DNA from: Dehalococcoidia bacterium
GTDB taxonomy: Bacteria; Chloroflexota; Dehalococcoidia; GIF9; AB-539-J10
Direction of reading: 5' to 3'
Assembly: GCA_030611085.1 (NCBI GenBank)
Contig: JAUWQI010000004.1
Location: forward strand, 1,731 to 65,730
DNA length: 64,000 nucleotides
Shown here: positions 31,623-46,305 of the stretch, piece by piece
Layout: the number at the start of each line of letters is the position of its first letter
How positions within the stretch are numbered: position 1 is the first letter of the stretch
Position numbers and translations under genes: made by a program
Notes under the pieces: generated by a model
Told to the model about the DNA's origin: nothing
What the model saw: the letters and a program-made list of their open reading frames with translations, nothing else
Database searches by the model: none

Positions 31623-31744
31623 CTTCTTGGTGACTTTAGCGGAGTGGACCCACCCGTTCCCATCCCGAACACGGAAGTGAAACTCTCCAGCGCAGACGAT
31701 ACTTAAGGGGCGACTCTCTGGGAAAATATGTCGTTGCCAGGAAG
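31623..31744 (+). rRNA. rrf: 5S ribosomal RNA (stand-alone, no 23S upstream)
   Basis: cccacccgttcccatcccgaacacggaagtgaaac core. The terminal helix cttcttggtgac pairs with gttgccaggaag. Confidence 0.85.
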
Positions 31745-32943: not shown

Positions 32944-32948
32944 AGTTA

Positions 32949-34127
32949 TTACTCACTATCGGTTTCTGACTCGTACACTTTCCTGAGTATTCCTTCAACG
33001 TCATCACGTGCCAAACCGGCTTTTTGCATATCTCTATAAGCCTGCTCACGACTAGAGCCACTTTGCTTCATGGCCTGCGCAGATTCGTAAGGATTTGTCC
33101 CGATGAATGCTTCAATATCCCGCCACCTAACGGGTTTTGGTCCGTATACTTGATCCAGAACCCTCTCAACGTTCTCCTGGTTTAGGCCAGCCCTCTGCAT
33201 TTTCTCATGAGTTTCTTTTCTAGTCAGATTACACTCCTGAAATCTCTTGGTAGCTCCCCAAGGATTGTTGACTATCTGACTTCTATTCGGAAATCCTTTG
33301 CAATACTCCGGCTTGTCTGTTTTCAGCTTGCACAAGTAACATTTCGGATCATCTCCTGTGCAAATCTCACCTTCATCCTCAGCGCAAAAATGCCAAATGT
33401 AGCTATCAACATACTTGCGTGGTTTCCCCAGAGCTTCTGCTATTGTTATCCCTGTTTTCCTGATATCTTCTGGCTTTCTGCTGGCCCTCACCTGAGCTCT
33501 ATTAAGGTTGATTCTATTGAGAAACGCAATTGTGTGGGTATCGGGTTTGAACTCATCGATACCTATATTGTTGAAAAACTCGCAACAGGTCGCTAGTCCC
33601 ACGCTGCGAAGCTTAAACGGGCTATTAGGGTCGGTGAAACATTTTATCAAAGGGGCGTCCGCAGGCCGGACATAGCACTTGCACAACGGGTCATAAGCTG
33701 CTGCAGGCAGATAGCTCTTGATGAGGGTACAGACAGACCCATGCGTAGACATAATCTGCTGGAACACTCTTGCATTATTGCGAATAGCAAGCAGTTCATC
33801 TTCAAGGAATCTTGCCTTCACCTTACTCTTGTACTGAGCGAATAGCTTTCCAATGTCGCTGTCGGTTAAAGCGGCGACGCTATTCACGTTGTAATTAAAT
33901 AAGCTGACTTTCAGAGCAGGCAAGATCTTTTTCACAGATGCCCAATTTGCCTGCCTTGTCAGAATAGCCCTGCATAATCCCTTAAATATATAGTTATCGT
34001 CTCCACGAAAGTCACTAGGGGATGTTCGAATATTTTTCAATACTTTAGGCTTTTCAACTTGCAATGTATCCCTGATCCTGTCTATTAACATCTCACAATC
34101 TGGTTTGGACAGAATATTAATATTCAT
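32949..34127 (-). CDS. Tag-like (3-methyladenine DNA glycosylase I fold) domain protein with Cys-rich and repeat C-terminus
   Basis: By-eye alignment to E. coli Tag: RQANWA vs QAGLSW, AIRNNARV vs IIGNARA, VGLATCCEF vs VGTTICYSF. Two C-terminal repeats MQ(R/K)AGL..(N/D)VE.(V/I)L. RBS aggagg. Confidence 0.45.
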   Translation of the reverse strand: MNINILSKPDCEMLIDRIRDTLQVEKPKVLKNIRTSPSDFRGDDNYIFKGLCRAILTRQANWASVKKILPALKVSLFNYNVNSVAALTDSDIGKLFAQYKSKVKARFLEDELLAIRNNARVFQQIMSTHGSVCTLIKSYLPAAAYDPLCKCYVRPADAPLIKCFTDPNSPFKLRSVGLATCCEFFNNIGIDEFKPDTHTIAFLNRINLNRAQVRASRKPEDIRKTGITIAEALGKPRKYVDSYIWHFCAEDEGEICTGDDPKCYLCKLKTDKPEYCKGFPNRSQIVNNPWGATKRFQECNLTRKETHEKMQRAGLNQENVERVLDQVYGPKPVRWRDIEAFIGTNPYESAQAMKQSGSSREQAYRDMQKAGLARDDVEGILRKVYESETDSE

Positions 34128-34136
34128 TTCTACCTC

Positions 34137-34457
34137 CTATTTTCTGCTGAATCTTCCAGTTCCATCTACCCTCTCCCTCAAAGCCTTCAGATTCACCACG
34201 TCTTCCTTGTTATATTCTAACAGCAAACTCAAGGCATCTTGGTCCCCATAATTCTGATATTTCCACCACAGCCATATTGCCGCCAGTCCGTCAACGCCCT
34301 GTAGCTGCCTGGAAATTCCCAATTGTTGCTCTACTGCCTTGAAGCCACCATAAAGATTATTCCTCCAGCAGTCATACATCAGGTCATGATGGCAAAACTC
34401 AGACTCAAGGTCTATTCCCAGAGAAGAATCAATGAAGGGAAGGTCGAATCGTTCAGT
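34137..34457 (-). pseudogene. 3' fragment of a second RNase H-like exonuclease gene copy
   Basis: Encodes ..FDLPFIDSSLGIDLESEFCHHDLMYDCWRNNLYGGFKAVEQQLG.., a paralog of the C-terminal ~105 aa of 35590-36081. It has no 5' half. Confidence 0.7.
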
Positions 34458-34636
34458 GTGTTTACCCCAGTAAACCTGAGGTCGTCATAGCACTTCTTCA
34501 AGGTCTCGTGAACCCTCGTGCCCAAGAAGCCCTCAACGCCTTCGATATCCCGCTTAATTCTGTCCCGATAGCGAAGCTTGTACTTCAAGGGACACTCCTT
34601 ATACATACTTAGCTGCGAATGAGAATAGATGGGCAT
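34458..34636 (-). pseudogene. 5' fragment of a second Cas4-like PD-(D/E)XK gene copy
   Basis: MPIYSHSQLSMYKECPLKYKLRYRDRIKRDIEGVEGFLGTRVHETLKKCYDD is nearly identical to the start of 31747-32943. It then runs into the exonuclease fragment out of frame. Confidence 0.75.
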
Positions 34637-34733
34637 CTTAACCTTTGTTAGTCTCCCTTCGGATTGTTTGTTGGCACCCTTGTTCTTTACCCTACTCCCT
34701 TTGCGTGTTTATTCACAGGCAGTTCTCACCGAG

Positions 34734-35555
34734 TTAATCCAAATTGTTTCTTGGTACTAGTCGGATATGCCACTTATCCAGCTCTTCTAAGAACCACTCG
34801 TAAAATGCTGTTGGATTTCCTATATAAGGAAGCCTTACACTCCGTTGTATCCAAGCATCATTTACTTCAGTCCGGTTCCCACCTTTATCTTTTACCCGTA
34901 GTCCTCCCCACCTATCCCGAAGCTTCTCTGTGAGCCTGTATTGCTTCCCCTTCCCACGTCGTTTACCAATGGGTATGCATTTTGTCAATCTTCCAGATTT
35001 CTCATCCTCACGCTTTCCAAAGACTATAATATCTGCGTCGTTATATTGCCCTCTTGTATGTGCATTCCTACCACGTTCCCCTTTGTTTACAAGGTCTTTC
35101 GCGGAAATTGGCTTACCATCTACAATGTAAAGACCGATGATAGCATAGACAAGTCGATCTTCCTCTGGTTCACGCTTAATAGGCTTAAGACCTGCATAAA
35201 AAGCCAATATGTCACCATCATTTAATTCACGAATGGGCTTGCCCCTGTGGTGAGTCTTCTTAGAAGAGAAATCACACCCATCAACATCACCATATGATAA
35301 TTCATAGAAGTCGGGGTCAAGGTGCACGTTCTTGCCCTTTAATTTGTCCGGCGGAAGGCGTTTCTCAAATTCCTCACAATCGCAATACTTATTGAACTCA
35401 TCGTAAGTCGTTCTATGCTCTGGACAAACTTGCCTGCCTTCTGGTATGGGAACGTAAACGAAATCATAAACGGGGTCAGTGGTATTGTTATTTACTGGAG
35501 CATTCCAGCCACCAGATGTTAAATCTATACCTACTCTAACCAGTAATGCGTGCAT
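34734..35555 (-). CDS. hypothetical 273-aa protein (possibly Nmad3-like nucleotide-modification-associated domain)
   Basis: MHALLVRVGIDLTSGGWNAP...VHLDPDF...GDILAFYAGL. It reminds me of the Nmad3 family, but this is from memory only. Strong RBS aaggagg. Confidence 0.4.
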   Translation of the reverse strand: MHALLVRVGIDLTSGGWNAPVNNNTTDPVYDFVYVPIPEGRQVCPEHRTTYDEFNKYCDCEEFEKRLPPDKLKGKNVHLDPDFYELSYGDVDGCDFSSKKTHHRGKPIRELNDGDILAFYAGLKPIKREPEEDRLVYAIIGLYIVDGKPISAKDLVNKGERGRNAHTRGQYNDADIIVFGKREDEKSGRLTKCIPIGKRRGKGKQYRLTEKLRDRWGGLRVKDKGGNRTEVNDAWIQRSVRLPYIGNPTAFYEWFLEELDKWHIRLVPRNNLD

Positions 35556-35589
35556 GTTTTCCTCCTTTCTTTAATATTGGGGTGCTGTT

Positions 35590-36081
35590 TCACTCCAGCC
35601 TCTCCCGCAAAACCTTCAGATTTACCACATCCTCTTCATTATACTTCAGCAGTGTAGTCAACGCATTTTGGTCACCTCCATTCTGGTATTTCCACCACAG
35701 CCATACCGCCCCCAATCCACCGACGCCCTGTAGCTGCCTGGGGATTCCTAGCTGTTGTTCTACTGCCTTGAAGCCGCCAAAAAGGTTATGCCCCCAACAG
35801 TCATACATCAGGTCGTGATGGCGAAATTCAGCCTCAAGGTCTATTCCCAGAGAAGAATCAATGAAAGGAAGGTCAAACCGCTTGCCGTTATAGGTATAGA
35901 TTGCATTTACGCCGTTGAGGGATTCGAGAAGATTCTCTCTGGTCACGGCTTCGCCCACTAATTGAATGAGCTTATCATCTTTGCTATTGCACAGATAAAT
36001 GCCGACTACGGTTATATAATCATAAAACCGAGATAAGCCAGTGGTCTCTATATCAAGGTATGCATCAGTCAATTGCTTCAT
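35590..36081 (-). CDS. RNase H-like (DEDD/YprB-type) 3'-5' exonuclease domain protein
   Basis: MKQLTDAYLDIETTGLS...YTYNGKRFDLPFI...HHDLMYD is the exonuclease motif I-III pattern. Confidence 0.7.
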   Translation of the reverse strand: MKQLTDAYLDIETTGLSRFYDYITVVGIYLCNSKDDKLIQLVGEAVTRENLLESLNGVNAIYTYNGKRFDLPFIDSSLGIDLEAEFRHHDLMYDCWGHNLFGGFKAVEQQLGIPRQLQGVGGLGAVWLWWKYQNGGDQNALTTLLKYNEEDVVNLKVLRERLE

Positions 36082-36117
36082 AGCTCGTGCCTTTAGATTG
36101 AAGTGTAGCACATACCA

Positions 36118-36149
36118 GTGACAGCTAGATTGTCACAAACTGCTATTTT
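36118..36149. promoter_or_regulatory. inverted-repeat operator-like motif GTGACA-N7-TGTCAC plus conserved tail
   Basis: gtgacagctagattgtcacaaactgctatttt lies upstream of the exonuclease operon. It is near-identical to 39047-39078. Confidence 0.55.
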
Positions 36150-36207
36150 GTTGGTATATGCCTATCGTTGTTGGAACAGCCTCGCTATATAGATATTGTC
36201 CTCTTTC

Positions 36208-36432
36208 TTACTCCAGTAGCTTGCGGAACTTCTCACGAGTAAGGGAGGCTTCTCTCAATATTTCTCGCAGTGTTCCCACCTTTATCTCTCGATGTCTGGG
36301 AATGGCCACAGTGTGGTTGGTCTTTGGGTGATAGTAAACCATATGGCTTCCTCTTTGCCTATCGAACACGAATCCTGCACGCTTCAGAGCTGCGGTCACC
36401 TGCTGCCAGGTAAGGCTGGGCAGTCGGCTCAC
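36208..36432 (-). CDS. hicA: HicA-family mRNA interferase toxin
   Basis: 74 aa. LKRAGFVFDRQRGSHMVYYHP...IPRHREIKVGTLREILR. Confidence 0.8.
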   Translation of the reverse strand: MSRLPSLTWQQVTAALKRAGFVFDRQRGSHMVYYHPKTNHTVAIPRHREIKVGTLREILREASLTREKFRKLLE

Positions 36433-36632
36433 ACGACTACCTCACGCTCCTTAATCTGTGGTAATGATAACCCTCGCTCCTTGAGACTCTCTAGATAAAC
36501 CTCTATGGCCTCTCTGATATTAGCCATAGACTCCTCAATGGTTTCCCCTTGGGAGATACAGCCAGGTAAGGAAGGCACATACACAGTATAGCCACCTTCT
36601 TGCTGAGGCTCCACGATTACCCTACATTTCAT
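36429..36632 (-). CDS. hicB: HicB-family antitoxin (short form)
   Basis: MKCRVIVEPQQEGGYTVYVPSLPGCISQGETIEESMANIREAIEVYLE. RBS aaaggagg. 4-nt overlap with hicA. Confidence 0.8.
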   Translation of the reverse strand: MKCRVIVEPQQEGGYTVYVPSLPGCISQGETIEESMANIREAIEVYLESLKERGLSLPQIKEREVVV

Positions 36633-36766
36633 TTTGCCTCCTTTGTTATCAAAAGTATCTCTTATGCCCCATGCTTGGGTTAATTCTAGTATGACCCAGG
36701 CTCGAAAGCAATGCTTCACAGTGTTCATATTATCATTTACATGAGCGGCAGCATCTAGCACAAATG

Positions 36767-37198
36767 CTATTTCCTTTTAGAGACTTCCAGCGACTCTGAT
36801 TGGGCGGTAGCTTCTAATTTATGGTCGGAAGAAGAAAAAGTTATCGTTGAGCCAAGCCTTGTCTTGAGAGTCAATGCTGAGGCAAGGTGGATGGCGTCGA
36901 ACCCCCTGAGGCTGTGTCGTTCAGCAAGCGCGCCAGCAAGCTTCGATACTGGCCATTAGACATCTATGGCAAAGTAGGCACCCCAGTGCTGCTGCAGATT
37001 AGTTATCACGGTGTGATACTGCTCATCGGTAAAATCGCCTTGTCGGTGTTTCCTGGCAAAAGCGGCACAAGCTTCGGCGTATGCCACCTGCGAGGTAGCG
37101 ACAACTCTAGCTCCGTCGAACAAAGCCTTCACTTCGTCGGAGCCATCTTCTCTAACATACAGCTTCACTAAAGAGCTCGTATCTAAATAAAGAATCAT
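36767..37198 (-). pseudogene. vapC: VapC (PIN) toxin interrupted by an in-frame TAA
   Basis: MILYLDTSSLVKLYV...YFAIDV-TAA(36956-36958)-WPVSKLAGALAERHSLRGFDAIHLASAL... all reads in one frame. Confidence 0.7.
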
Positions 37199-37461
37199 CG
37201 CCTGTCTTCAATAACAATCTCGGAAACAGGTTTACCACTAGCTGCTATGGGTTCTGGTGCGATTGGTTTGCCACCTTCCCAAATTGCCAGTCCTTCTTTG
37301 ACCATCTCCGTCAATCGGCTGTAATTGTCAGACTCTTCCACAGGAACAATAAGCGCCACATCGCGGCCGCGATTGGTAACTACAACCTGTTCTCCACTTC
37401 TGACAAGAGAGATATAGTATTTGAGATTATTCTTTAGTTTTCTAATGCCTGCTTTGGCCAT
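37195..37461 (-). CDS. Phd/YefM-family antitoxin
   Basis: 88 aa. KLKNNLKYYISLVRSGEQVVVTNRGRDVALIVP. 4-nt overlap with vapC. Confidence 0.75.
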   Translation of the reverse strand: MAKAGIRKLKNNLKYYISLVRSGEQVVVTNRGRDVALIVPVEESDNYSRLTEMVKEGLAIWEGGKPIAPEPIAASGKPVSEIVIEDRR

Positions 37462-37632
37462 ACCATCACCCCTTTTGTGGCAACATTATAAAGATTTTGT
37501 ATCCACAATGTCAATCTTTAATCGCCCAGTGCAGCCACTCCTATCTGGGAAAGGTGGCATTTTACTTGGTAGTAGGCAAGATAACGAGGCTGTGACAGGT
37601 CATGCTGCTTTGAAAGAGTATGTCGCCATATT

Positions 37633-39009
37633 CTACACTCGTTTGCCACGGCTGTTCACGAATTTGACGAAATCATCTAGTTTTTTCATAGTACAGACGA
37701 TTTTATCCACCAACCCTTCTCCATTAGTATTCCGGACTTCATCAGGTTCGAAACGTCTTGTTATGCCGAAGGTAATATCATCATAGTCAGCGCCATCTCC
37801 CTCAATCGCTTCCCCTATTTCACCGATGTACTTGACCAGGTCTTGCCTTTTCTTGAACTCGCTTAATTTTACTTCCCACTTATCTTCTGGGAGAAAAGAT
37901 TTGTGATTCTCCTCACTTTGATAGTAGTACAAATCAATGAAGAACCCCTTGGGCATTTTAAACAATATACGGGATATCTCGTCTTTATCTGTCTTTATCT
38001 TTCTAAGCAGCTTCTTCCTCAGGGCATCATTTGTGACACGAACCCAAACGGAAAGGCCTTCGCTACCTAATTGAATACACCGGTGCGCCTTGACTTCTTT
38101 AACTTTCTTATCAGAAGTTCCTTTATTGTAAACAGGGAGGAAATAAAAAGTCGCCCAATCATACTTGTTTTTACCTTTTCGAATTCCTTCCGGGGGGCCG
38201 CACTTAAGATAACATTTCTTAGTCCTCTCAGATATATCCTCGGATAGAGCCAGCATCTTCCGTTTCAGTTCTTTCCTTATTTCTTCTTTTTCCTTCGCAT
38301 CTAGCTCTTTTTGCTTCTGCTCGTTAAAAAAATCAAAGTACTTGTTATCATTAAAGCCAGTGAATCCAGCCAGCCCTTCCAAATATAGAAAGTCGCAGAA
38401 TTGCGTTATTAAGAATTCGTTTTTTACATTGAGCAATCGCTTGTTTTCAGGTTCATCCTTTAATTCGCTAAAGAAGGTATATAACTGCTTCCATGAAATG
38501 ACAGCAGGCTTGTGCAGATCTCCCAGTATCCCTTTGTGATTCTTAATCTGATTTTTGTCTAGTCCATCATAGCGCTTACTTTCAATAAGAATTGTCCACT
38601 TTTTCCCAAGCAACCACGCATCAGGGATGCTTGCCTCAGTTTCAGGCCTTGTGTTTTCCGCGTAGATTTGTTCAGTAAAACCGTGGGGGACTATACCCAA
38701 TATTCGCTTAGCTGTCTCTCGGCCAAGATACTTGTCACCGGGATTCCCTTGCTGAAGTAGGAACTTATCCACTTTTGGGGGCACAAGCTTGACTCCTATT
38801 TTCCCGCTCAGCCAGCTAATAAACCGTTTACATATCTCACCATTACCATCGGTAAGTTCTAAGACATTAATAAGAGCCTTGGTTACATTGTTCTCAAGTG
38901 CTTTTGTTTCTTCAGTATCACCGTTCTCCGTATCACCGCCTTTTGTCGGTCCTCTATAATATTCAAATATGTTGTGACCCTTTATGTTGTGACCCTTTTC
39001 ATAATCCAT
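37633..39009 (-). CDS. 458-aa protein with N-terminal PD-(D/E)xK nuclease-like motif, otherwise unknown
   Basis: ..EASIPDAWLLGKKWTILIESKRYD.. (D..ExK). RBS aaaggaggg. It lies downstream of the WYL regulator on the same strand. Confidence 0.55.
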   Translation of the reverse strand: MDYEKGHNIKGHNIFEYYRGPTKGGDTENGDTEETKALENNVTKALINVLELTDGNGEICKRFISWLSGKIGVKLVPPKVDKFLLQQGNPGDKYLGRETAKRILGIVPHGFTEQIYAENTRPETEASIPDAWLLGKKWTILIESKRYDGLDKNQIKNHKGILGDLHKPAVISWKQLYTFFSELKDEPENKRLLNVKNEFLITQFCDFLYLEGLAGFTGFNDNKYFDFFNEQKQKELDAKEKEEIRKELKRKMLALSEDISERTKKCYLKCGPPEGIRKGKNKYDWATFYFLPVYNKGTSDKKVKEVKAHRCIQLGSEGLSVWVRVTNDALRKKLLRKIKTDKDEISRILFKMPKGFFIDLYYYQSEENHKSFLPEDKWEVKLSEFKKRQDLVKYIGEIGEAIEGDGADYDDITFGITRRFEPDEVRNTNGEGLVDKIVCTMKKLDDFVKFVNSRGKRV

Positions 39010-39046
39010 TCTATTCCCTCCTTTGTTTTTAGAATTACATACCTTT

Positions 39047-39078
39047 GTGACATCTAGATTGTCACAAATTGCTATTTT
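39047..39078. promoter_or_regulatory. inverted-repeat operator-like motif GTGACA-N7-TGTCAC plus conserved tail
   Basis: gtgacatctagattgtcacaaattgctatttt lies between the WYL gene stop and the 458-aa gene start. Confidence 0.55.
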
Positions 39079-40059
39079 TTCTTATAGACATCCAGCATAG
39101 CTTTAGCCGTCTCGATAATATCCTGGCGCAGTTCCTCTGGCTCCAGCACCTCCACCTTCTCTCCCCAGCTCAATATCCAGAAACAGAGTTCGTCTGTAAC
39201 GGTCACCCGCAGTGTCATTATTACCGAGCCATCCTTTTGCCTCTCCACCACCTGTGAGGAATGCCATACTGTCTCCTCCATTATCCTGGCTATTTCAGGG
39301 TCAAACTTCAGCTTAACCGTCTTGGCCTCACCATAAACAGTGATGCCCCAGGAAGAACCCAAAAATTCATTAGCATCAAAACCATGTGGCATAACATAAT
39401 GCTCAAGGGTTGGTTCTATGCTTTCTATGCGCTCTATCTTGAAGGTGCGTATTTCATGGGCACGATGGCAATAGGCAATAACATAGCTTGAGTGCCCTGC
39501 CGCCGCTGGCTCAATAAAATATGGCTCTATTGTGCGTTCAGTTGTCTTCTCTGCCTCCAGTGCCCTATAGATTATTTTAACTCGTTGCTGGGATATCCAC
39601 GCCTCAGCTAGAGTCGCCAGGGTGCGCAAATACCTGTCGTCCTTTGGTTGTTTCTGCATCCACTCCATGGTCTTTTGAATTTGCTCTCTCAACGGAGGTG
39701 AGACTATGGAATTCAACTTCATGAAGGTAGAGGCTACATTGGGGTCATAGCGATGGGTGTAGCTGAGCATCAGCCGGGCAGCGAGAAAAACATTCAAGGC
39801 TTCAGGCAGGGTAAAGTGGATGGGGGGGGAGAAGATAACCTTCTGTGATACCGCGCTTAGTGCTCTCTTCCCAGATGGGCACGCCCAGCTCAGTTTCCAG
39901 GGCAGCCAGGTCACGATATGTAGTTCTTTTGCTGACTTCACACCGGCTAGAGATATCTTCTATCTTCAAACCCCTGGGATTCTGGTAGAGCAGGTGCTCT
40001 ACTTTCAGCAAGCGCGCCGTTCGGTCTGTTTTCCGTCTTTCAGCTTCACTCAATTTCAC
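39072..40059 (-). pseudogene. HTH-WYL-WCX transcriptional regulator split by a frameshift at a C8 tract
   Basis: The HTH ORF (39802-40059) and the WYL ORF (39072-39941) overlap. Removing one C from the C8 run (39822-39829) gives a continuous ..EGYLLPPIHFTLPEALNVFLAARL.. (~328 aa). Confidence 0.75.
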
Positions 40060-40147
40060 TGTCTCTCATTAGCCCAAAGTTGCCTGATTTTCATTATAAC
40101 ACCTGCCATAAGAATATTCGTAAAAAGCTAAAACTCCAGCCAAATTT

Positions 40148-40166
40148 GTGACAGACCGTCGTCACA
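40148..40166. promoter_or_regulatory. related imperfect inverted repeat GTGACA-N7-GTCACA in WYL/AAA+ divergent promoter
   Basis: tttgtgacagaccgtcgtcacatg. It shares the tttGTGACA half-site with 39047, but the spacing differs by 1 nt. Confidence 0.3.
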
Positions 40167-40225
40167 TGCCCATGCTATTCTGATTCTTAGCTGCAAATTA
40201 AAGAGATGGGGAGGGTGAATAAAAG

Positions 40226-41602
40226 ATGACCGCGGAAGAACGTTTTCTGGAGGCTATCGACGAGGAAGATAACGAGGAGCTTGAAGCGCCTGCTCCGTAT
40301 GACCGGTTTGCCAGGAGGCATGAAAAGCTCCAATACAAGAACAAGTCTGCTAGCGAGAATTTCTTGGGCAAAGGCAGCCGAGCAAATGCAGTAGCCATAC
40401 TGCCCAGATACTACGGTGAACTGCTGACCTGGGCACTCGATCGCTACATTGAGAAAGAGGGGTGGAAGGTTATTCGAATCCTCGGCTACCGTGGCCGTGA
40501 ACCCATATATATAGATGTGAGCACGGACTGCGATAAGTGTGAGGACCTTTTGATGAATGGCCAATTATTATTAGAGAAGGGTGATAGCCATTTCATAGTT
40601 ACCGTGGACATAAACCTGCAGTGGAGAAATTCAGTCCAGGTAGAAGGTTCTGCCAAAAGGAGAAAGGAAATAGAGAAATTCGCCGACGGCGTCAAGGCTA
40701 TCGCCAAAGAGCAGAACTTCTACCGGGGTAAGAAAATTGAGTTCGGAGGGCGTATTCACTTTCTGAATATCAAAGACAGGTCGTGGGACAGCATTATACT
40801 GGCTCCTGCCATAAAGCGAGAAATCGAGGCTAATACCATTGATTTCTTGAACAGGAGGAAACACTGGGCAGAATATGGGATACCCCAGAAAAGAGGCGTT
40901 CTGCTCGCAGGTGAGCCGGGGACAGGGAAAACAGTAATCTGCAAGGCGCTGATGGCAAATGCCAATGGAGTAACCTGCATCACGACCAATGCCTATGGGT
41001 TGAGCGCTGATGAGTACATCACCGAGCTTTATGAGATGGCTCAAGACCTCAGTCCATGTATCGTTTTCATCGAGGATATAGACCTAATAGGGCTAAACCG
41101 GGAGGAGTATCTCTACCAGCATGGCCCTGCGTTGCTCTCGTTGCTCAACGTACTCGATGGGGTTGAAGAGAAGCAGGAAATCGTAACCGTGGCTACCACC
41201 AATAACCTGCAGACGCTGGATAGGGCCATAAGCCAGCGCCCATCGCGCTTTGACCGCGTCGTAAAGCTCTCTCTCCCACTACTGGAAGAACGGAAAGAAC
41301 TAATCAGCTCATTGTGTCAGAAAATACCCGTAGATGAACCCACCCAGGATTATATTGCCCGTAGGTCAGAACACTGCACCCCAGCTCAGCTACAGGAGGT
41401 TATCTACAGCCTGGTCATAGAGCACTCTGATGAACTATCCGCTGCTCAGTCGCCAAATCTTGAATTTGGCAAAGATGATATTGACCGAGTCATCTCAAGG
41501 ATAAATGGCAGGAATGGGCAGCACATAGGTTTCAATATCTCTGGTAATCACAATGGTGACAAGATGGCCTGTGTGGAAGCTTTGGAGCAAAGCAAGTGTT
41601 GA
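40226..41602 (+). CDS. AAA+ ATPase (classic AAA clade) with ~220-aa uncharacterised N-terminal domain
   Basis: GVLLAGEPGTGKTV (Walker A), CIVFIEDIDLI (Walker B) and ATTNNLQTLDRAISQRPSRFDR (SRH). Confidence 0.8.
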   Translation: MTAEERFLEAIDEEDNEELEAPAPYDRFARRHEKLQYKNKSASENFLGKGSRANAVAILPRYYGELLTWALDRYIEKEGWKVIRILGYRGREPIYIDVSTDCDKCEDLLMNGQLLLEKGDSHFIVTVDINLQWRNSVQVEGSAKRRKEIEKFADGVKAIAKEQNFYRGKKIEFGGRIHFLNIKDRSWDSIILAPAIKREIEANTIDFLNRRKHWAEYGIPQKRGVLLAGEPGTGKTVICKALMANANGVTCITTNAYGLSADEYITELYEMAQDLSPCIVFIEDIDLIGLNREEYLYQHGPALLSLLNVLDGVEEKQEIVTVATTNNLQTLDRAISQRPSRFDRVVKLSLPLLEERKELISSLCQKIPVDEPTQDYIARRSEHCTPAQLQEVIYSLVIEHSDELSAAQSPNLEFGKDDIDRVISRINGRNGQHIGFNISGNHNGDKMACVEALEQSKC

Positions 41603-41781
41603 GCAGACTGCTAAGAGTGTTTTTGATTCCACCATTGTTAATTGCTGTGACTGCCTTGGTCATCGTTGGGCTCAAAGATTTTAACTTACTGAGCGTAATA
41701 ATTCCCAAACTCATAGTGGCAATTGTTATTATTGGGATTCCGATACTTATCGTGAAGAGAGTGTTTTTCCCTAAATACTAA
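41596..41781 (+). CDS. small 2-TM membrane protein (61 aa)
   Basis: The GTG start overlaps the AAA+ stop (gtgttga). The sequence is strongly hydrophobic. Confidence 0.4.
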   Translation: MLSRLLRVFLIPPLLIAVTALVIVGLKDFNLLSVIIPKLIVAIVIIGIPILIVKRVFFPKY

Positions 41782-41802
41782 GAAGAAAGGAGAGTGAGAA
41801 GG

Positions 41803-41949
41803 ATGAAACATCCGGTAAGGTGTCCAAAATGCGGAGGGACCGGCCAGGTACCTAGAAAAGGCTTGCCGCCTATGCTGAAAGGGGCAATCGGGATTCGTCA
41901 GCACGACGAATGTCCTGTTTGCAACGGCGTAGGTTACGTCGAAGACTAG
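41803..41949 (+). CDS. 48-aa mini-protein with two DnaJ-type CxxCxGxG zinc-finger motifs
   Basis: Own translation: MKHPVRCPKCGGTGQVPRKGLPPMLKGAIGIRQHDECPVCNGVGYVED. RBS aaaggagag lies upstream. Confidence 0.5.
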   Translation: MKHPVRCPKCGGTGQVPRKGLPPMLKGAIGIRQHDECPVCNGVGYVED

Positions 41950-42102
41950 AGAATGTGAACCGAAACCCTGACATTGGATACTCTAGGTTAGAGCAGCCGA
42001 CGTGGCTCGGCAGACACACTGGGAAGTGGCACCATGTGAAAAATATTGCGTGGTGCCACCCCTATGAACTTGCGGGTTCTATATATGAAGGGAAGAGGGA
42101 TA

Positions 42103-42210
42103 GAATTTTATATCCCCAAGGTGGGAAAAGATTTCTATATGCCTAGGGTGGGTAAAGACTTCTATGTGCCTAAGGTAAGCAAGGATTTCTATGCTCCTAA
42201 AATTAGAAAG
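42103..42210 (+). repeat. four tandem 27-bp repeats (encode [D/E]FYxP[K/R][V/I]xK in one frame)
   Basis: gaattttatatccccaaggtgggaaaa / gatttctatatgcctagggtgggtaaa / gacttctatgtgcctaaggtaagcaag / gatttctatgctcctaaaattagaaag. Confidence 0.8.
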
Positions 42211-42264
42211 GGGGGACTCTTCTAATTTTAGGATGAAAATATTTTGGCTTCATCATCTTCCCCT

Positions 42265-42328: not shown

Positions 42329-42349
42329 GGTCGGGGACAAGCCCCGACC
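42329..42349. repeat. GC-rich hairpin ggtcggggacaagccccgacc
   Basis: Perfect 8-bp stem with a 5-nt loop. Confidence 0.6.
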
Positions 42350-42364
42350 CTACGACATATAACC

Positions 42365-42388
42365 GTAGTGGCGGGGTTCATCCCCGCC
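42365..42388. repeat. hairpin repeat gtagtGGCGGGGttcatCCCCGCC, copy 1
   Basis: It matches 42796-42819 at 23 of 24 positions. Confidence 0.75.
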
Positions 42389-42795: not shown

Positions 42796-42819
42796 GTAGT
42801 GGCGGGGTTTATCCCCGCC
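42796..42819. repeat. hairpin repeat gtagtGGCGGGGtttatCCCCGCC, copy 2
   Basis: See 42365-42388. Confidence 0.75.
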
Positions 42820-43452: not shown

Positions 43453-45000
43453 GTGGAAACTTATGAGGGGGATACTATAAAAATGGCAACTTTTGATTTA
43501 AACGAAATAAAGTCGCAAGCAAAGAGCAATTTTACCGAGGCTTGGAGAGCAACGGCAAAGCTTATCCCAACAGGCACTAAAATCAGTCTGGAGGGAAAAG
43601 GCAAACCCCATCTTGTGCGGGAATTGGTGCAAAAATCTCGTGAAATATTGCTAAATCTAGGTTTCGATGAGGTGGAAAATCCTACAATCTTACCCGACAG
43701 CGATGTTGTTAAGCAGTATGGTCCTGAAGCGCGAGTTATTCTTGACAGGGTTTTTTATCTAGCGGAGTTACCCCGTCCTGAAATAGGGCTGAGCGCGAAA
43801 AGAATAGCTCAGGTAAAGAAGATAGCGGGGGAAATCGACATTGAAAAACTACAGTCTGTTTTAAGAAGCTACAAAAAAGGGGAAATTGAGGCAGATAACC
43901 TTATTGAGGAGCTCATGGCTAGGCTGAGCATCACTGATTACCAGGCTACAGAGCTTTTGAACCAGGCTTTCCCCGAACTTTACAAGCTTCGCCCCTTGCC
44001 TTCTGATAAGACTCTAAGAAGCCACATGACAGCTACCTGGTTCCACACTTTAGCAGCATTGCAGGATAAATCTGGCTTTCCCCTCGCCTTATTCTCCGTG
44101 GGACCTCGGTATCGCAATGAGCAGAGAGAGGATGCCCAACATCTACGAGTCCATCACTCAGCCTCAATCGTTATAATGGATCCTGAGGTGTCATTGGACG
44201 CAGGAAGGGAAATAACAGAAGGAATCCTAAAGCAGTATGGCTTTTCCGATATTAAATTTGAGACGAAGACAGCGACATCTAAATATTATGCTCCAGGGCA
44301 AGAGCAAGAGATATTCATTAAGCATAAAGGGAATTGGCTCGAAGTTGCCGATATTGGAATGTATTCTCCGATAGCCTTAGCAAACTTTGATATTAAGTAT
44401 CCGGTATTTAACGCTGGTTTTGGGGTTGAACGACTAGCTATGCTTCTCTATGAGCTAGATGATGTTAGAAAAGTAGCATATCCCCAGTTTTCCATAGCTG
44501 ACTATTCTGATGAAGAAATAGCCAAATCTATTACCTGCATAGTAAGTCCTAAAACCACGAAAGGAAAGAAAGTAGCCAGGGCAATCGAGGAAACTGCTCG
44601 AAAGTATAAAGACGAGATTGCGCCCTGTGAATTTCTAGCCTGGGAAGATAACTTTATTCAAGTGAAAGTTACAGAGAAGGAAGCAGGCAAGAGGCTAATC
44701 GGGCCCGCAGGGTTTAACGAGATTTGTGTCGCTAATGGCGCTATTTATAGTGATATTGCGCCTTCAGGGGCATATACCGGGATAAACTACATGCGTGCCA
44801 TTGCCGTAGGAGCAGCAGCTTCAATCGAAAGCAGCAAAGATAACCTAAGCTATCAGGTGAAAATGATAAAGCATCTCTCGGACCTCAATTTACAAATTCC
44901 GGAGGCTATTCGGGAGCATATAGAAGGGCAGCAAAAAAAGATTGGGGTTAGTGGTGCTGTATTTGTGACTATAGAGGCAGAACCAGTAAAAGGGTGCTAA
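43453..45000 (+). CDS. sepS: O-phosphoserine--tRNA(Cys) ligase (SepRS)
   Basis: Long colinear similarity to methanogen SepRS: QYGPEARVILDRVFYLAELPRPEIGLS, TLRSHMTATWF, HHSASIVIMD, SKYYAPGQEQE, GMYSPIALANF, GFGVERLAM, VAYPQF. The start is GTG 43453 or ATG 43483. Confidence 0.85.
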   Translation: METYEGDTIKMATFDLNEIKSQAKSNFTEAWRATAKLIPTGTKISLEGKGKPHLVRELVQKSREILLNLGFDEVENPTILPDSDVVKQYGPEARVILDRVFYLAELPRPEIGLSAKRIAQVKKIAGEIDIEKLQSVLRSYKKGEIEADNLIEELMARLSITDYQATELLNQAFPELYKLRPLPSDKTLRSHMTATWFHTLAALQDKSGFPLALFSVGPRYRNEQREDAQHLRVHHSASIVIMDPEVSLDAGREITEGILKQYGFSDIKFETKTATSKYYAPGQEQEIFIKHKGNWLEVADIGMYSPIALANFDIKYPVFNAGFGVERLAMLLYELDDVRKVAYPQFSIADYSDEEIAKSITCIVSPKTTKGKKVARAIEETARKYKDEIAPCEFLAWEDNFIQVKVTEKEAGKRLIGPAGFNEICVANGAIYSDIAPSGAYTGINYMRAIAVGAAASIESSKDNLSYQVKMIKHLSDLNLQIPEAIREHIEGQQKKIGVSGAVFVTIEAEPVKGC

Positions 45001-45009
45001 CTCTCCTTT

Positions 45010-45037
45010 GTCACCCTAAGCGAAGCGAAGGGTCTAG
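45010..45037. repeat. Family-B single unit
   Basis: gtcaccctaagcgaagcgaagggtctag, immediately after the sepS stop. Confidence 0.75.
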
Positions 45038-45162
45038 AAACAGAGGAGCAATATTAAATAATTCAACTTTAGTTGTGCCAAAGGCACAATCAAAATTGAA
45101 GCTGAAACCAAAATTGAAGAGCCGCGTTTTAAGCAGGGGGCGAACCATCGCAAGGGGGAAAC

Positions 45163-46305
45163 ATGGCGAAACAAGCAGAAAGTAAATCATTACAAAAGCT
45201 CGCTAACTTGCGCAGGCAACATAAGAGCTTTATAAATATTATGCCCCTACAGACAGGAGGCATGCTTACCGAGGCTGCCCAAAAAGCTTTAGTGGAATTT
45301 GGAGATGGTTATTCCGTATGCGATTTCTGCCTTGGCAGCTTGTGCAATATAACAAATCCTCCTGTTAGGGAGTTTGCGCATGAGCTTTTACCGGAGTTCT
45401 TGGGCTGCGAAGTTGCTACTTTAACCTATGGGGCAAGGGATGGCATATTTATGATAATGCACTCTCTGGCAAAGCCAGGAGGTTCAATTATTGTTGATGG
45501 TAACAGACATTACACCACGGTTGTTGCTGCTGAAAGAGTGGGATTGAATGTAATCGGAGTGCCTTCTTCGGGATATCCAGAGTTCAAGGTTGATGTTAAC
45601 GACTATGTATCACTTATAAAAAAACACAATCCTAAATTGATTCTATTAACCTATCCCGATGGCAATTATGGCAATATTTCCGATGCCAGAAGACTAGGGG
45701 AAATTGCCCAGGAATATGACATTCCCTATATTGTTAATGGAGCATATGCCGTGGGCCGGATGCCGGTAAATATGGAGGGGTTGGGAGCGGATTTCATTGT
45801 TGGTAGTGGGCACAAAAGCATGGCCTCTGCTGGACCTTGCGGGGTGTTGGGAATGAAAAGGAAATGGGAAGAAATCGTGCTGAGGAAATCCGAGGCATAC
45901 GGCAATAAAGAGCTTGAATCGCTGGGTTGCACCTTGCGGGGAACTCCCCTGGTAACACTTATGGCTTCCTTTCCTTATGTGAAAGAAAGAGTTAATCACT
46001 GGGATGAGCAAGTATCAAAGGCACAATGGTTTTCCCGCGAGCTGGAAAAATTGAGCTTTAAGCAATTAGGAGAAACACCACACCAACATGACCTGCTACA
46101 CTTTGAGACTCCGGCGCTCTATGATATTTCCAAGCATGTTCGGGAGCGGGGATACTTTCTCTACAAGGAGCTGAAAGAAAGAGGCATTTGGGGACCGCAG
46201 CCAGGCCTGACGAAAGCTTTTAAACTTTCCACCTTTGCCGCTACCAAAGAACAGCTACAATTTGTCATAGATTCCTTTAAAGCCATCCTGAATAAATATG
46301 GATAG
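45163..46305 (+). CDS. pscS: Sep-tRNA:Cys-tRNA synthase (SepCysS), PLP-dependent
   Basis: 380 aa. IVGSGHKSMASAGPCGVLG (PLP-Lys plus the Cys-containing loop), fold-type I aminotransferase layout. Adjacent to sepS. Confidence 0.8.
   Translation: MAKQAESKSLQKLANLRRQHKSFINIMPLQTGGMLTEAAQKALVEFGDGYSVCDFCLGSLCNITNPPVREFAHELLPEFLGCEVATLTYGARDGIFMIMHSLAKPGGSIIVDGNRHYTTVVAAERVGLNVIGVPSSGYPEFKVDVNDYVSLIKKHNPKLILLTYPDGNYGNISDARRLGEIAQEYDIPYIVNGAYAVGRMPVNMEGLGADFIVGSGHKSMASAGPCGVLGMKRKWEEIVLRKSEAYGNKELESLGCTLRGTPLVTLMASFPYVKERVNHWDEQVSKAQWFSRELEKLSFKQLGETPHQHDLLHFETPALYDISKHVRERGYFLYKELKERGIWGPQPGLTKAFKLSTFAATKEQLQFVIDSFKAILNKYG

Follow-up and report, generated by a model that had tools for sequence, protein, structure and literature searches.

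The locus is best explained, with about even confidence, as the right-hand part of a self-contained regulon cassette of ~10 kb (31747-41949, Table 1) carried by a subset of Dehalococcoidia, with positions given in the window, i.e. the whole stretch of 64,000 nucleotides that was analysed. The best reading of the cassette is a putative ssDNA-triggered WYL activator regulon, and a role in the response to DNA damage is given a roughly even chance; we infer every step beyond the anatomy of the sequence. A sequence-only reading of the same DNA had described a WYL-associated conflict system comprising a PD-(D/E)xK protein, an AAA+ ATPase, a 2-TM (2TM) protein and a DnaJ-type zinc-finger mini-protein. 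All the ORFs it described are present where it placed them and a WYL-centred syntenic unit was recovered, but the extent of the unit, its partners and its status as a defence island were not supported. The functional unit is larger and differently organised, reaching ~6 kb further left to an operon running from RNase_H_2 to PDDEXK_1 that has the operator in common. The combination of AAA+, mini-proteins, nuclease and WYL has not been described before, and the earlier statement that it matched no named system agrees with a PADLOC search of the cassette proteins, in which no named or candidate system was matched as a set.

Table 1. Features of the cassette in the window, from left to right.
Feature	Position	Strand	Details
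PDDEXK_1 / Cas4-like nuclease, 398 aa	31747-32943	-	Pfam PF12705 E = 8.6e-24; PADLOC Cas4 E = 1e-7; last gene of left-hand operon
392-aa protein, N-terminal Tag-like (3-methyladenine glycosylase I) domain	32949-34127	-	Pfam Adenine_glyco 27.4 bits (cut-off 25)
Two gene fragments	34137-34636	-	RNase_H_2 3' part 34137-34379; PDDEXK_1 5' part 34412-34636
Nmad3-domain protein, 273 aa	34734-35555	-	Pfam PF18754 E = 1.5e-21
RNase_H_2 (DnaQ-like) exonuclease, 163 aa	35590-36081	-	Pfam PF13482 E = 2.7e-37; first gene of left-hand operon
Operator O3 TGACAATCTAGCTGTCA	36119-36135 (element 36102-36135)	-	11 nt, then -10 TACACT (36102-36107)
HicA/HicB toxin-antitoxin pair	36208-36761	-	HicA 36208-36432, HicB 36429-36761; Pfam on identical L001 genes
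VapC (PIN) and Phd antitoxin	36767-37461	-	Phd 37195-37461; VapC with nonsense codon in window
458-aa protein	37633-39009	-	N-half possible PD-(D/E)xK fold (D130, E143-x-K145, Q154); C-half DUF1054/YktB-like
Operator O2 TGACAATCTAGATGTCA	39048-39064 (element 39031-39064)	-	11 nt, then weaker -10 AATTCT (39031-39036)
HTH-WYL-WCX regulator	39072-40059	-	Pfam HTH_11, WYL, WCX; frameshifted
Operator O1 TGACAGACCGTCGTCA	40149-40164 (element 40149-40181)	+	11 nt, then extended -10 TGcTATTCT (-10 at 40176-40181)
Bcs1/YjoB-like classical AAA+ ATPase, 458 aa	40226-41602	+	Pfam AAA E = 3e-23; PF00004 at residues 225-349
61-aa 2TM protein	41596-41781	+	Two hydrophobic spans; GTG overlaps AAA+ stop (GTGTTGA)
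Zinc-finger mini-protein, 48 aa	41803-41949 (from ATG)	+	Two CxxCxGxG motifs: CPKCGGTG, CPVCNGVG

The cassette family is sporadic, occurring in 26 of 185,579 species genomes and 115 of 1.84e9 cluster representatives, and nearly confined to Dehalococcoidia; no relatives or copies were found in the viral contigs searched. WYL and AAA+ lie next to each other in divergent orientation in every locus with sufficient upstream sequence (166 bp between the two starts in the window), an adjacency that nearly all loci keep over an identity range of 44-87%, and the identities of the two proteins drop together across loci. Housekeeping neighbours are unchanged around the locus in diverged genomes; CinA-SepRS on the right is common to the window and L025, and a YkoP..MscS stretch to L004 and L006.

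Three transcription units of the window lie behind the operator, namely AAA+/2TM/zinc finger, the 458-aa protein with the toxin-antitoxin genes, and RNase_H_2/Nmad3/Tag-like glycosylase/PDDEXK_1. Between the palindrome TGACA-N5-7-TGTCA and the -10 downstream of it, which is mostly of the extended type, there are exactly 11 nt, and no -35 is present; the window contains two exact copies and one with a single mismatch (0.10 expected by chance), all inside the cassette locus and each facing a gene. Among 47 perfect palindromes from loci fetched by protein, TAnnnT was found at exactly +11 in 34 (other offsets giving six or fewer); with N6/N7 spacers alone it was at +11 in 26 palindromes, 20 of which had the extended -10 TG. 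The operator-promoter element precedes the AAA+ gene in 29 of 30 related loci, and a scan of metagenomes with the operator pattern gave 107 hits, ~68 being cassette loci. Across loci the genes behind it include AAA+, RNase_H_2 (the commonest non-AAA+ gene in the metagenome scan, ~30 of the 107 hits), PDDEXK_1, DUF2779, the Tag-like u392 and a NucS_C-like nuclease. None of the three window operator promoters passed a -35/-10 scan; phd, in contrast, has a consensus sigma-70 promoter of its own just upstream (37485-37514), with a perfect TTGACA-18-TATAAT. Since the -10 of O3 lies downstream of a GTG at 36111, the start of the RNase_H_2 gene was set at ATG 36081. If there were no functional unit, the genes would lie together by chance and the palindrome would be some generic element of promoters or akin to a terminator; the O2 copy region (39044-39068) is indeed also called as a terminator-like hairpin on the plus strand, and the genes in the slot after WYL vary between loci, but such an origin is very improbable, as the synteny and the operator statistics above in effect refute it.

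The regulator contains WYL/WCX domains at 39072-39941 and an HTH_11 domain at 39802-40059 (Pfam). In the window a +1 frameshift within a C8 run (39822-39829) breaks its gene in two, whereas contig L001, 99.98% identical, has C7 and an intact gene encoding 328 aa; because of this frameshift the cassette may be silent in the window. The closest solved relatives in the PDB are DriD (E = 9e-11) and PafC/PafBC (E = 9e-9). In the recognition helix, R45 and R49 fall opposite R37 and R41 of DriD, the residues that read G and C in the CGAC half-site. The DriD ssDNA contacts Y192, R204, W206 and R207 are matched in the alignment by Y192, R204, F206 and K207; one further contact, R288, lacks conservation, and taken by itself the HTH portion of the alignment is not significant. 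The promoter layout of the cassette is the geometry of DriD-activated promoters, which lack a -35 and in which the DriD site overlaps that position, always equally far from the -10 (PMC13004042); in our own reading of the promoters printed there, TGTCG/TGGCG is followed after 11 nt by CAATCT/CAAGGT. The N5 operators of L006, L021 and L146-148 are spaced like the DriD site, CGACA-N5-TGTCG. By analogy with DriD and PafBC, the WYL protein would be an activator induced by single-stranded DNA held in its WYL domain, and it is predicted to bind the GAC...GTC palindrome, which would take the place of the -35 element.

The AAA+ ATPase is the invariant target of the regulon and is strongly conserved (60-86% identity over 120 clusters). 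It consists of an acidic tail, an alpha/beta N-domain (about residues 50-180) and the AAA domain. The N-domain, previously described as novel, resembles nothing in Pfam or the PDB by sequence, but a predicted structure of the protein (AF2 pLDDT 80) gave YjoB (7w42) and Bcs1 (6sh3, 8t14) as top Foldseek matches over ~390-450 columns, so that the fold predicted for the domain is the one seen in the N-domain of Bcs1/YjoB and not a new one. Walker B E283-D284 is invariant in the family, and such an “ED” Walker B is a signature described for YjoB and Bcs1 (PMC9565160). The protein was grouped with these two on the basis of predicted fold and Walker B, and the invariant output of the regulon would be a chambered ATPase of this type; the canonical pore-loop motif is absent. 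The housekeeping family that the sequence-only reading had considered (FtsH/CbbX) was rejected, the NCBIfam FtsH model (cut-off 600 bits) scoring the protein at 102 bits, and neither a protease domain nor a TM segment being present.

The overlap of the AAA+ stop with the 2TM start, as first described, was confirmed and is also found in L006, L012, L019 and L021, the 2TM protein being conserved in the window, L012, L019, L021, L024, L026 and L085. The zinc-finger ORF (51 aa if read from GTG 41794) has 12 orthologues that are 70-80% identical; both motifs are present, and the DnaJ_CXXCXGXG match (E = 2e-5) is under Pfam's cut-off. In L004 the zinc finger is fused to a C-terminal TM helix. Because of the gene overlap and this fusion, the ATPase is probably membrane-docked via the translationally coupled 2TM protein, with the zinc finger as its putative adaptor or client. 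When the co-occurrence suggested earlier was checked, WYL and AAA+ were syntenic, but 2TM and zinc finger followed AAA+ in only about 10 of 24 loci (~40%) and the 458-aa protein was rarely present; fuller operons also hold an M50-like HExxH membrane protein and a CpXC protein. The best structural match, YjoB, is a substrate-specific chaperone with induction in stationary phase and under envelope stress (PMC9565160), and the operon might likewise encode a proteostasis or envelope-stress chaperone, as YjoB does in the sigma-W regulon, with a WYL ligand other than ssDNA and the neighbouring nucleases merely co-regulated. DnaJ-type zinc fingers are chaperone modules, and the M50-like and CpXC proteins and the missing pore-loop motif would also suit this role. 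It is nevertheless improbable, as nucleases and glycosylase are under the same operator in nearly all loci, the aligned ssDNA-contact residues are largely conserved and the locus has neither a sigma factor nor an envelope-stress regulator associated with it.

The 458-aa protein, taken earlier for a component of the system, is no conserved partner but the occupant of a variable slot after WYL; only eight homologues besides itself were found in 5.8e9 proteins. In other loci this slot holds NucS_C-like, HNH, UDG-like, HEAT, HicB-like or DnaJ-zinc-finger genes. The PD-(D/E)xK motif reported for it is there, the ORF containing ...SIPDAWLLGKKWTILIESK..., but no significant sequence or fold match to nucleases was obtained, viral PD-(D/E)XK matches reaching only E = 0.1-0.3, and a nuclease assignment is possible from the motif and the order of secondary-structure elements. 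In the predicted structure (AF2 pLDDT 80) the C-half gave Foldseek matches to 2a8e and 3mqz at probability 1.0, and Pfam DUF1054 is weak in the family (3 of 9 members).

The likeliest role of the cassette would be an SOS-independent response to DNA damage or other sources of ssDNA. The regulator, the geometry of the promoters and a large part of the cargo (a Tag-like glycosylase, a DnaQ-like exonuclease and a RecB/Cas4-like nuclease) fit a DNA-damage regulon of the DriD/PafBC type at least as well as the defence island proposed earlier; the non-AAA+ outputs would process DNA ends and damaged bases. Against a damage regulon, no gene of the recA, uvr or lexA type turned up behind the operator when metagenomes were scanned with the specific pattern, almost all true hits falling inside the cassette, and the sporadic spread, unlike that of the core regulators PafBC and DriD, the nuclease-rich slot (HNH, NucS_C-like/PDC-S02 and PD-(D/E)xK-type genes), the embedded toxin-antitoxin genes and the type I R-M system adjoining the L147 cassette look like a defence island. 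HicAB and Phd/VapC flank the locus as first described, with Phd/PIN at the same position in L037, L045, L046, L109, L112, L117 and L121; the neighbours are an integrase fragment with AAA_15/21 in L146 and Dam with DUF87 in L148. The variable slot, the toxin-antitoxin genes, these neighbours and the sporadic spread would also suit anti-phage or anti-plasmid defence, in which a WYL repressor would be freed on infection, the nucleases would attack invading DNA and AAA+/2TM/zinc finger would form a membrane-directed abortive-infection effector. BrxR and CapW are WYL repressors, and the extended -10 could make the cassette promoters factor-independent, with WYL a repressor of that kind. WYL regulators commonly control defence systems, the best PADLOC WYL models are CRISPR-associated ones (E = 1e-40 to 2e-66) and the AAA domain resembles IetA (E = 1e-21, PADLOC). 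Defence is nonetheless tentative and the less probable role: besides the failure of PADLOC to match a set and the absence of viral copies, the conservation of AAA+ and of the housekeeping neighbours is unlike that of fast-turnover defence genes, a spacing to the -10 held strictly at 11 nt where promoters have no -35 is required by activators but not by repressors, and WYL is broken in two lineages with its targets still intact, a loss that would come at a cost if WYL held down a toxic effector. The match to IetA is confined to the generic AAA domain, and the IetS protease is absent.

In the left-hand operon, the Tag-like gene lies between RNase_H_2 and PDDEXK_1 again in L027, L037, L087 and L129, and PDDEXK_1 orthologues of ~400 aa have an operator of their own in L022 and L028. 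The in-frame ATG of the window PDDEXK_1 gene at 32943 gives the N-terminus MPIYSHSQLSMYKECP. The two gene fragments are a recombination scar, 32777-32943 and 34470-34636 forming a 167-bp duplicate with 96% identity and the RNase_H_2 stretch matching at 83%, and the nonsense change in VapC is at 36957 relative to L001.

Alignment of the WYL/AAA+ intergenic regions revealed a conserved element that starts with T-rich DNA and continues with the palindrome TGACA-N5-7-TGTCA and, after 11 nt, TAnnnT, usually with TGn before it. By chance the exact palindrome is expected 0.10 times in the 64-kb window; two exact copies and one with a single mismatch were observed, all within this locus and each facing a gene. 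The element was present upstream of 29 of the 30 AAA+ genes with enough upstream sequence. Among the 47 perfect palindromes of the loci fetched by protein similarity, 34 had TAnnnT exactly at +11, with other offsets reaching at most 6 each; counting N6 and N7 spacers alone, TAnnnT was at +11 in 26 palindromes, with the TG of an extended -10 in 20 of these. The hexamer located 16–18 nt 5' of the -10 falls inside the palindrome and is unlike TTGACA, and the left half-site often reads TTGACA but lies 21–22 nt from the -10, too far for a -35. A standard -35/-10 scan missed all three operator promoters and found a perfect sigma-70 consensus, TTGACA-18-TATAAT, before phd, so canonical -35/-10 promoters are used by this organism. 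The regulatory architecture is well supported by sequence statistics, which establish a conserved operator, its strict phasing to the -10 and the lack of a -35 in its promoters.

Features of the cassette and its flanks in the window, with coordinates
Feature	Position	Strand	Remark
5S rRNA gene	31626-31742	+	Rfam, 94.6 bits
167-bp duplicate	32777-32943		96 % identical to 34470-34636; lies at start of intact PDDEXK_1 gene
Gene fragments	34137-34636		RNase_H_2 3' fragment and PDDEXK_1 5' fragment, between Nmad3 and the 392-aa gene
Operator copy	36119-36135		faces RNase_H_2
phd promoter	37485-37514	-	sigma-70 consensus
458-aa ORF	37633-39009	-	contains SIPDAW...ILIESK
Operator copy	39048-39064		faces 458-aa gene
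WYL gene	39072-40059	-	Pfam WYL+WCX and HTH_11
Operator copy	40149-40164		faces AAA+
AAA+ ORF, 458 aa	40226-41602	+	Pfam AAA
2-TM ORF, 61 aa	41596-41781	+	six-frame ORF list
Zinc-finger ORF	41803-41949	+	CPKCGGTG and CPVCNGVG
Small repeat ORF	42046-42225		four tandem GKDFY(V/M/I)P(K/R)V repeats
GC-rich hairpins	42330-42348 and 42370-42388		GGCGGGGTT(C/T)ATCCCCGCC, twice
GC-rich hairpin	42801-42819		GTCGGGGACAAGCCCCGAC
SepRS and SepCysS genes	43453-46305		TIGR00470, 456 bits; TIGR02539, 518 bits

Every ORF named in the sequence-only reading was present in the six-frame ORF list of the window, and the ORF coordinates bore out the divergent arrangement of AAA+ and WYL across a 166-bp gap, the overlap of the GTG start of the 61-aa ORF with the AAA+ stop (GTGTTGA) and the HicAB and Phd/VapC genes to the left of the locus. 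From the positions and statistics of the operators, three transcription units under one operator can be proposed in the window. The first would comprise the AAA+, 2-TM and zinc-finger genes; the second would hold the 458-aa gene and may extend by read-through to Phd/VapC and HicBA, although these also have their own promoter; and the third runs through RNase_H_2, Nmad3, two gene fragments, the Tag-like gene and PDDEXK_1 to end at 31747 beside the 5S rRNA gene. Comparison with L001 (of the public contigs and loci with related sequence, designated L001 onwards, the one 99.98 % identical to the window) revealed two defects that had escaped the earlier reading, a frameshifted WYL and a nonsense change in VapC. 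In the latter, a T/G difference at 36957 creates a stop codon that leaves an 80-aa ORF vs 143 aa, and the Phd/VapC toxin looks inactivated in the window strain.

In a scan of public metagenomes, a 19-base operator/-10 pattern matched 107 loci, about 68 of which carry WYL, AAA+, RNase_H_2, PDDEXK_1 or DUF2779; the genes behind these cassette sites are mostly RNase_H_2, AAA+, DUF2779, HicB-like and the 392-aa protein (the Tag-like gene product). The remaining matches, found before ARPP-1 (L106, L116, L124), a 1435-aa protein and Cas_GSU0053 (L047, 1370-2830, on a high-GC contig), among others, have neither WYL nearby nor cassette genes. They are treated as chance hits or targets of other regulators and were left uncounted, because no WYL is nearby and their number is within the range expected by chance. 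A genome-wide regulon was rejected, the counted hits lying mostly within cassettes, as was a fourth site in the window at 48244, which has one mismatch and its -10 at +13 and lies inside an AMP-binding gene on the other strand (L001 map).

The WYL protein is the sole constant DNA-binding protein of the cassette. It has a wHTH + WYL + WCX architecture (Pfam HTH_11, WYL, WCX), contiguous in the intact L001 allele; in the window, a C7 run (39822-39829) is longer by one C, and the gene is thereby divided into an 85-aa HTH ORF and a WYL/WCX ORF. The frameshifted C8 run encodes the conserved LPP linker, and the gene is also split in the near-identical contigs L002 and L003, while in a second lineage (L147, 8930-9824) it is broken by an internal deletion and a frameshift. 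This breakage may reflect recurrent loss, phase variation or an error of assembly.

ssDNA-sensing WYL regulators have been characterised in Actinobacteria (PafBC) and in Caulobacter (DriD). In phmmer searches against the PDB, the best relatives of the cassette WYL were DriD chains (E = 9e-11), which share its wHTH-3HB-WYL-WCX architecture, followed by PafC (E = 9e-9) and PafBC (E = 3e-8), although sequence identity to DriD is low and reaches significance over WYL-WCX alone. The DriD site is the pseudo-palindrome ATACGAC-N7-GTCGTAT, which overlaps the -35 position at an identical distance to the -10 in all DriD promoters; these lack a -35. DriD activates the divergent operon next to its gene but does not autoregulate (PMC13004042). 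The cassette has a site over the -35 position, a fixed distance to the -10 and a divergent target operon adjoining the regulator gene in the same way. The consensus site ATACGACAGTAACTGTCGTAT, that is CGACA-N5-TGTCG (PMC13004042), has the same GAC...GTC core as the cassette operator, and its spacing recurs in L006, L021 and L146-148; the outer base of the cassette half-site is T vs C, and cassette spacers are N5 to N7 in length. In the didA and CCNA_03891 promoters, 11 nt separate TGGCG/TGTCG from CAAGGT/CAATCT, equal to the cassette spacing, by our own count on the sequences printed in PMC13004042 and not by a statement of that paper.

The recognition helix is consistent with this likeness, in a HMMER alignment in which the stretch is not significant alone: R45 and R49 align with R37 and R41, the DriD residues that recognise G2 and the C4:G pair, and Tyr48 takes the place of DriD Glu40, which reads C1, the operator base there being T. 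The inducer of DriD is ssDNA bound between the WYL and WCX domains (PMC10853764), and ssDNA is also the inducer of PafBC (PMC11804915). Of the DriD ssDNA contacts, Y192, R204, W206 (Phe) and R207 (Lys) have equivalents in the cassette protein, R288 is replaced by Asp and the Y240 position is ambiguous. By analogy, the cassette WYL would bind the operator and, with ssDNA as its signal, act by activation. Alternatively, it could be a repressor like BrxR/CapW, since promoters with an extended -10 can dispense with a -35. A stereospecific contact with RNA polymerase is favoured instead by the phasing, which is invariant among many unrelated promoters, and the disruption of WYL in the window and L147 lineages, where the target genes are intact, is easier to tolerate for an activator.

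PafBC is a WYL-domain activator triggered by ssDNA, whose motif replaces the -35 in its promoters (PMC11804915). It is a heterodimer or fusion that recognises an asymmetric -26 motif via sigma adaptation and binds no DNA without RNA polymerase, whereas the cassette factor is a single gene with a palindromic site and a local regulon. PafBC, unlike it, controls a genome-wide repair regulon, which includes recA. BrxR and CapW are WYL repressors of BREX and CBASS with an HTH-WYL-WCX architecture; they adjoin the operon they control, have a palindromic operator, respond to DNA damage or infection and repress known defence systems. The cassette differs from them in that it holds no known defence system and its promoters look activator-dependent. 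In agreement with the earlier remark that the gene combination was not recognised as a named system, PADLOC on 16 cassette proteins gave domain-level matches only (generic WYL, AAA, Cas4 and PDC-S02 hits), and no recognised defence system such as BREX or CBASS was found adjoining WYL.

The cassette could well be a DNA-damage or ssDNA regulon, a reading we hold about evenly between acceptance and doubt; a defence system is possible but clearly less probable, and a role as a chaperone or in envelope stress, with a different ligand, is improbable. The regulator family and the promoter logic favour a DNA-damage/ssDNA response over defence. [quoted passage not shown] The cassette regulon likewise has nucleases and a small membrane protein, but its targets are a Bcs1-like AAA+, RNase_H_2 and PDDEXK_1, and it is apparently confined to one cassette of patchy distribution in the Chloroflexota. 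Its cargo is of repair type, with a Tag-like glycosylase, weak UDG- and Ogg-like proteins, a RecB/Cas4-type nuclease and a DnaQ-like exonuclease. The last of these, RNase_H_2, shares its Pfam family with MrfB/YprB, a repair exonuclease of B. subtilis. On the other hand, no canonical repair genes were found behind the operator outside the cassette in the metagenome scan, and the WYL is strongly similar to CRISPR-associated WYL models in PADLOC, both of which are more in keeping with defence. Neither recA nor lexA was present in any locus sequence collected.

The distribution of the cassette bears on both readings. The AAA+ has more than 120 full-length relatives at 60–86 % identity, the named ones belonging to Dehalococcoidia or Chloroflexota; a profile of its N-domain searched against 185,579 species genomes gave 26 loci, nearly all Dehalococcoidia MAGs, and the N-domain had 115 cluster representatives among 1.84 billion. 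WYL and AAA+ are divergent neighbours in all loci with enough upstream sequence except L023, which extends the synteny noted in the window to other genomes, and their identities drop in parallel from locus to locus. The strong sequence conservation of the AAA+ argues against a defence system, as do the lack of any matched PADLOC system, the lack of viral copies (no N-domain relatives on IMG/VR viral contigs, on which ground a phage origin was also rejected) and the retention of the same housekeeping neighbours in diverged genomes, such as CinA-SepRS in the window and L025 and a YkoP..MscS stretch in L004 and L006. A patchy distribution, embedded toxin-antitoxin modules and the presence beside the cassette of a type I R-M system, or of an integrase with AAA_15/21, in some loci speak for it. 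No mobile-element boundary was found, with no tRNA within 20 kb, no integrase in the window locus and an undeviating GC content. The cassette also occurs in MAGs assigned to other phyla (L030, CAIWTU010000110.1, 'Geobacter sp.', with at least four operator copies; L033, CAZOYZ010000917.1, 'Prolixibacteraceae'), by either horizontal transfer or mis-binning. The MAG CAYOKF01 contains two WYL/AAA+ pairs on separate contigs (L017 and L018), so the cassette can be duplicated within one genome; each of the two AAA+ copies is 58-60 % identical to the window protein.

A further point in favour of defence is the slot directly after WYL, which is hypervariable and nuclease-rich. It is occupied by a NucS_C-like PD-(D/E)xK protein in L028, an HNH endonuclease in L021, a weak UDG-like protein in L006, a weak Ogg-HhH-like protein in L004, a HEAT-repeat protein in L012, a HicB-like 192-aa protein in L024 and L031, and a second DnaJ-type zinc-finger protein of 85-124 aa with four CxxCxGxG motifs and a C-terminal GWAPPPP in L034 (85 aa, 3351-3608), L017 (124 aa, 1947-2321) and L147 (8573-8896), placed behind its own operator copy in L034 and L017. 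Beyond this slot on the WYL strand, two genes are found repeatedly, one for an RNase_H_2 (PF13482) exonuclease (~165 aa) and one for a PDDEXK_1/Cas4-like nuclease (~400 aa), often accompanied by DUF2779 or by the 392-aa protein, which passes the Pfam cut-off for a Tag-type methyladenine glycosylase domain. The 458-aa protein, proposed earlier as a partner of the AAA+, proved not to be constant in this slot, having only eight homologues besides itself among 5.8 billion proteins; these follow WYL in the matching position in L034-36, and in L037/38 they have Phd/PIN, RNase_H_2 and the 392-aa gene as neighbours.

As to the identity of the 458-aa protein, its SIPDAW...ILIESK motif was confirmed, and its N-half shows the alpha-beta-beta-beta-alpha-beta order of a PD-(D/E)xK core, with E143, K145 and Q154 invariant and D130 mostly conserved. 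No HMM or PDB fold match to a nuclease was obtained for the N-half, for which reason the nuclease of the earlier reading is treated here as a candidate; only two viral 'PD-(D/E)XK' models hit the protein, weakly (E = 0.1-0.3), and a PDB profile search gave nothing significant. In an AlphaFold2 model built from only nine sequences (pLDDT 80), the C-half fold matched DUF1054/YktB in Foldseek (2a8e, E = 2.5e-4; 3mqz, E = 5.5e-3; both with probability 1.0 and target-normalised TM-scores of 0.63-0.66), and Pfam DUF1054 was weakly detected in three of the nine members (best E = 0.021).

The AAA domain of the ATPase is of the classical clade (Pfam AAA E = 3e-23), with GEPGTGKT (Walker A), TTN (sensor 1) and RPSRFDR (arginine fingers) invariant and FIED as Walker B, in which E283-D284 is invariant in 120 sequences. 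Having ED for DE sets YjoB and Bcs1 apart from other classical AAA proteins; both are nonetheless active ATPases, and both enclose an internal chamber (PMC9565160). An AlphaFold2 model from 120 sequences (pLDDT 80, N-domain 85-96) was compared with the PDB using Foldseek, and the top 13 hits were YjoB and Bcs1 at 388-448 aligned columns, with YjoB first (E = 1e-16, about 410-450 columns); since ~390-450 columns are aligned, the fold match spans both the N-domain and the AAA domain. The N-domain had been described as novel, which holds for its sequence (nothing significant in a PDB profile search, Bcs1 only at E = 1.7) and not for its predicted fold, which is of Bcs1/YjoB type. The usual aromatic-hydrophobic-Gly pore loop is absent, and a chambered ATPase of Bcs1/YjoB type is, on the predicted fold, a more apt description of the protein than a threading unfoldase.

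In mitochondria, the AAA translocase Bcs1 transports the folded Rieske protein and is anchored through a TM helix at its N-terminus. The cassette protein resembles Bcs1 in clade, in Walker B and in predicted fold over the full length, but has a bacterial host, no TM segment in the chain and no Pfam BCS1_N match, and is instead accompanied by a separate, translationally coupled 2-TM gene. YjoB of Bacillus subtilis is, like it, a soluble protein of N-domain and AAA domain with an ED Walker B, and is stress-induced (PMC9565160). The identity is about 20 %, however, and YjoB is in the sigma-W regulon, confined to Bacillales, and stands alone, whereas the cassette AAA+ is under WYL in an operon with TM and zinc-finger mini-proteins. 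Membership of the FtsH, PAN or Cdc48 families was ruled out by NCBIfam cut-offs; for FtsH, which the earlier reading had named as a possible housekeeping match, TIGR01241 reached 101.7 bits vs a cut-off of 600, aligning the AAA core alone, and the cassette protein has neither the N-terminal TM helices nor the M41 protease domain of FtsH. IetA PADLOC models matched the AAA domain (E = 1e-21), as did the NCBIfam anti-phage ATPase model IteA (E = 3.5e-15), but IetAS was rejected, the IetA match being a partial one to the AAA core only (model positions 85-298 of 374; NCBIfam 56 vs 510) with no IetS protease gene. TRIP13/CBASS was likewise rejected on a partial match and absent partner genes.

About 10 of 24 loci have zinc-finger and 2-TM genes after the AAA+, and these are well conserved where present, a partial co-occurrence of the kind that had been proposed as a check. 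The zinc finger had been equated with the DnaJ repeat; its two CxxCxGxG motifs agree with this, while its Pfam match is sub-threshold (DnaJ_CXXCXGXG 25.1 vs a cut-off of 32.7). In size and two-motif layout it is near the ~53-aa protein anti-TRAP (RtpA), which has CxxCxGxG repeats as in DnaJ. It differs from both, having no J-domain, two motifs vs four in DnaJ, scores all below curated cut-offs (RtpA 21.4 vs 65) and a conserved linker, VPRKDLPPxLKGAxGxRQ, specific to this family. A word-indexed search outward from the zinc finger gave three proteins only, too few to be informative. As the second zinc-finger type directly follows WYL, zinc-finger mini-proteins are found on both arms of the cassette.

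In several lineages the 2-TM start overlaps the AAA+ stop, while L004 has no separate 2-TM gene and its zinc finger carries a fused C-terminal TM helix; this suggests a membrane-docked AAA+ complex with the zinc finger as putative adaptor or client. A five-gene operon of AAA+, 2-TM, zinc finger, HEAAH protein and CpXC is present in L021 (7782-9173), L147 (10001-12758) and L148 (10001-12752); the HEAAH membrane protein (~184 aa, weak Peptidase_M50 match) is also found in L015, L028 and L029 without the 48-aa zinc finger. A more specific and rather unlikely proposal refers to this AAA+/2-TM/zinc-finger operon, extended in fuller versions by the M50-like HExxH membrane protein and CpXC: a bacterial membrane-docked Bcs1-type machine, its anchor split off as a mini-protein, which on a WYL-relayed ssDNA alarm would move or insert a folded zinc protein across the membrane, or open the membrane. 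If true, a Bcs1-type machine would be the executive arm of a cell-cycle checkpoint or abortive-infection response, neither of which is, to our knowledge, known in this phylum.

The DriD-like regulator, Bcs1/YjoB-like AAA+, DnaJ-type zinc finger and RecB-type nucleases are of known kinds, while their combination in a single operator-controlled cassette whose invariant target is the AAA+ appears to be undescribed; a full-text literature search for WYL with Dehalococcoidia or Bcs1 gave nothing relevant. What the cassette does for the cell and how its AAA+ module works are inferred. The cassette would extend the DriD promoter logic, with a palindrome replacing the -35 and a fixed -10 phasing, to Chloroflexota, and as far as we know stress regulation in Dehalococcoidia is almost unstudied because few have been cultured. 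Its parts are compact and testable (one regulator, one operator, three promoters), and a Bcs1/YjoB-like AAA+ tied to 2-TM and DnaJ-type zinc-finger partners and to a defined inducing signal could help on bacterial Bcs1-like function. Were it a defence system, it would be a new one, in which the invariant component is the AAA+ and not a nuclease.

At the left end, the 5S rRNA gene stands alone, abutting the cassette next to the PDDEXK_1 stop; Rfam on 30-46 kb detected 5S only and neither 16S nor 23S. The gene fragments and the 167-bp duplicate look like a scar left when recombination introduced Nmad3. To the right, SepRS (O-phosphoseryl-tRNA ligase) beside SepCysS represents a tRNA-dependent cysteine pathway, and SepRS is found at the same position in L025. 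L025 has a 75-aa counterpart of the small repeat ORF (3683-3910), likewise placed between the AAA+ operon and cinA, whose N-terminal TM helix is missing from the window copy. The GC-rich hairpins lie within a ~900-bp non-coding stretch between the zinc-finger gene and cinA and may be REP-like elements.
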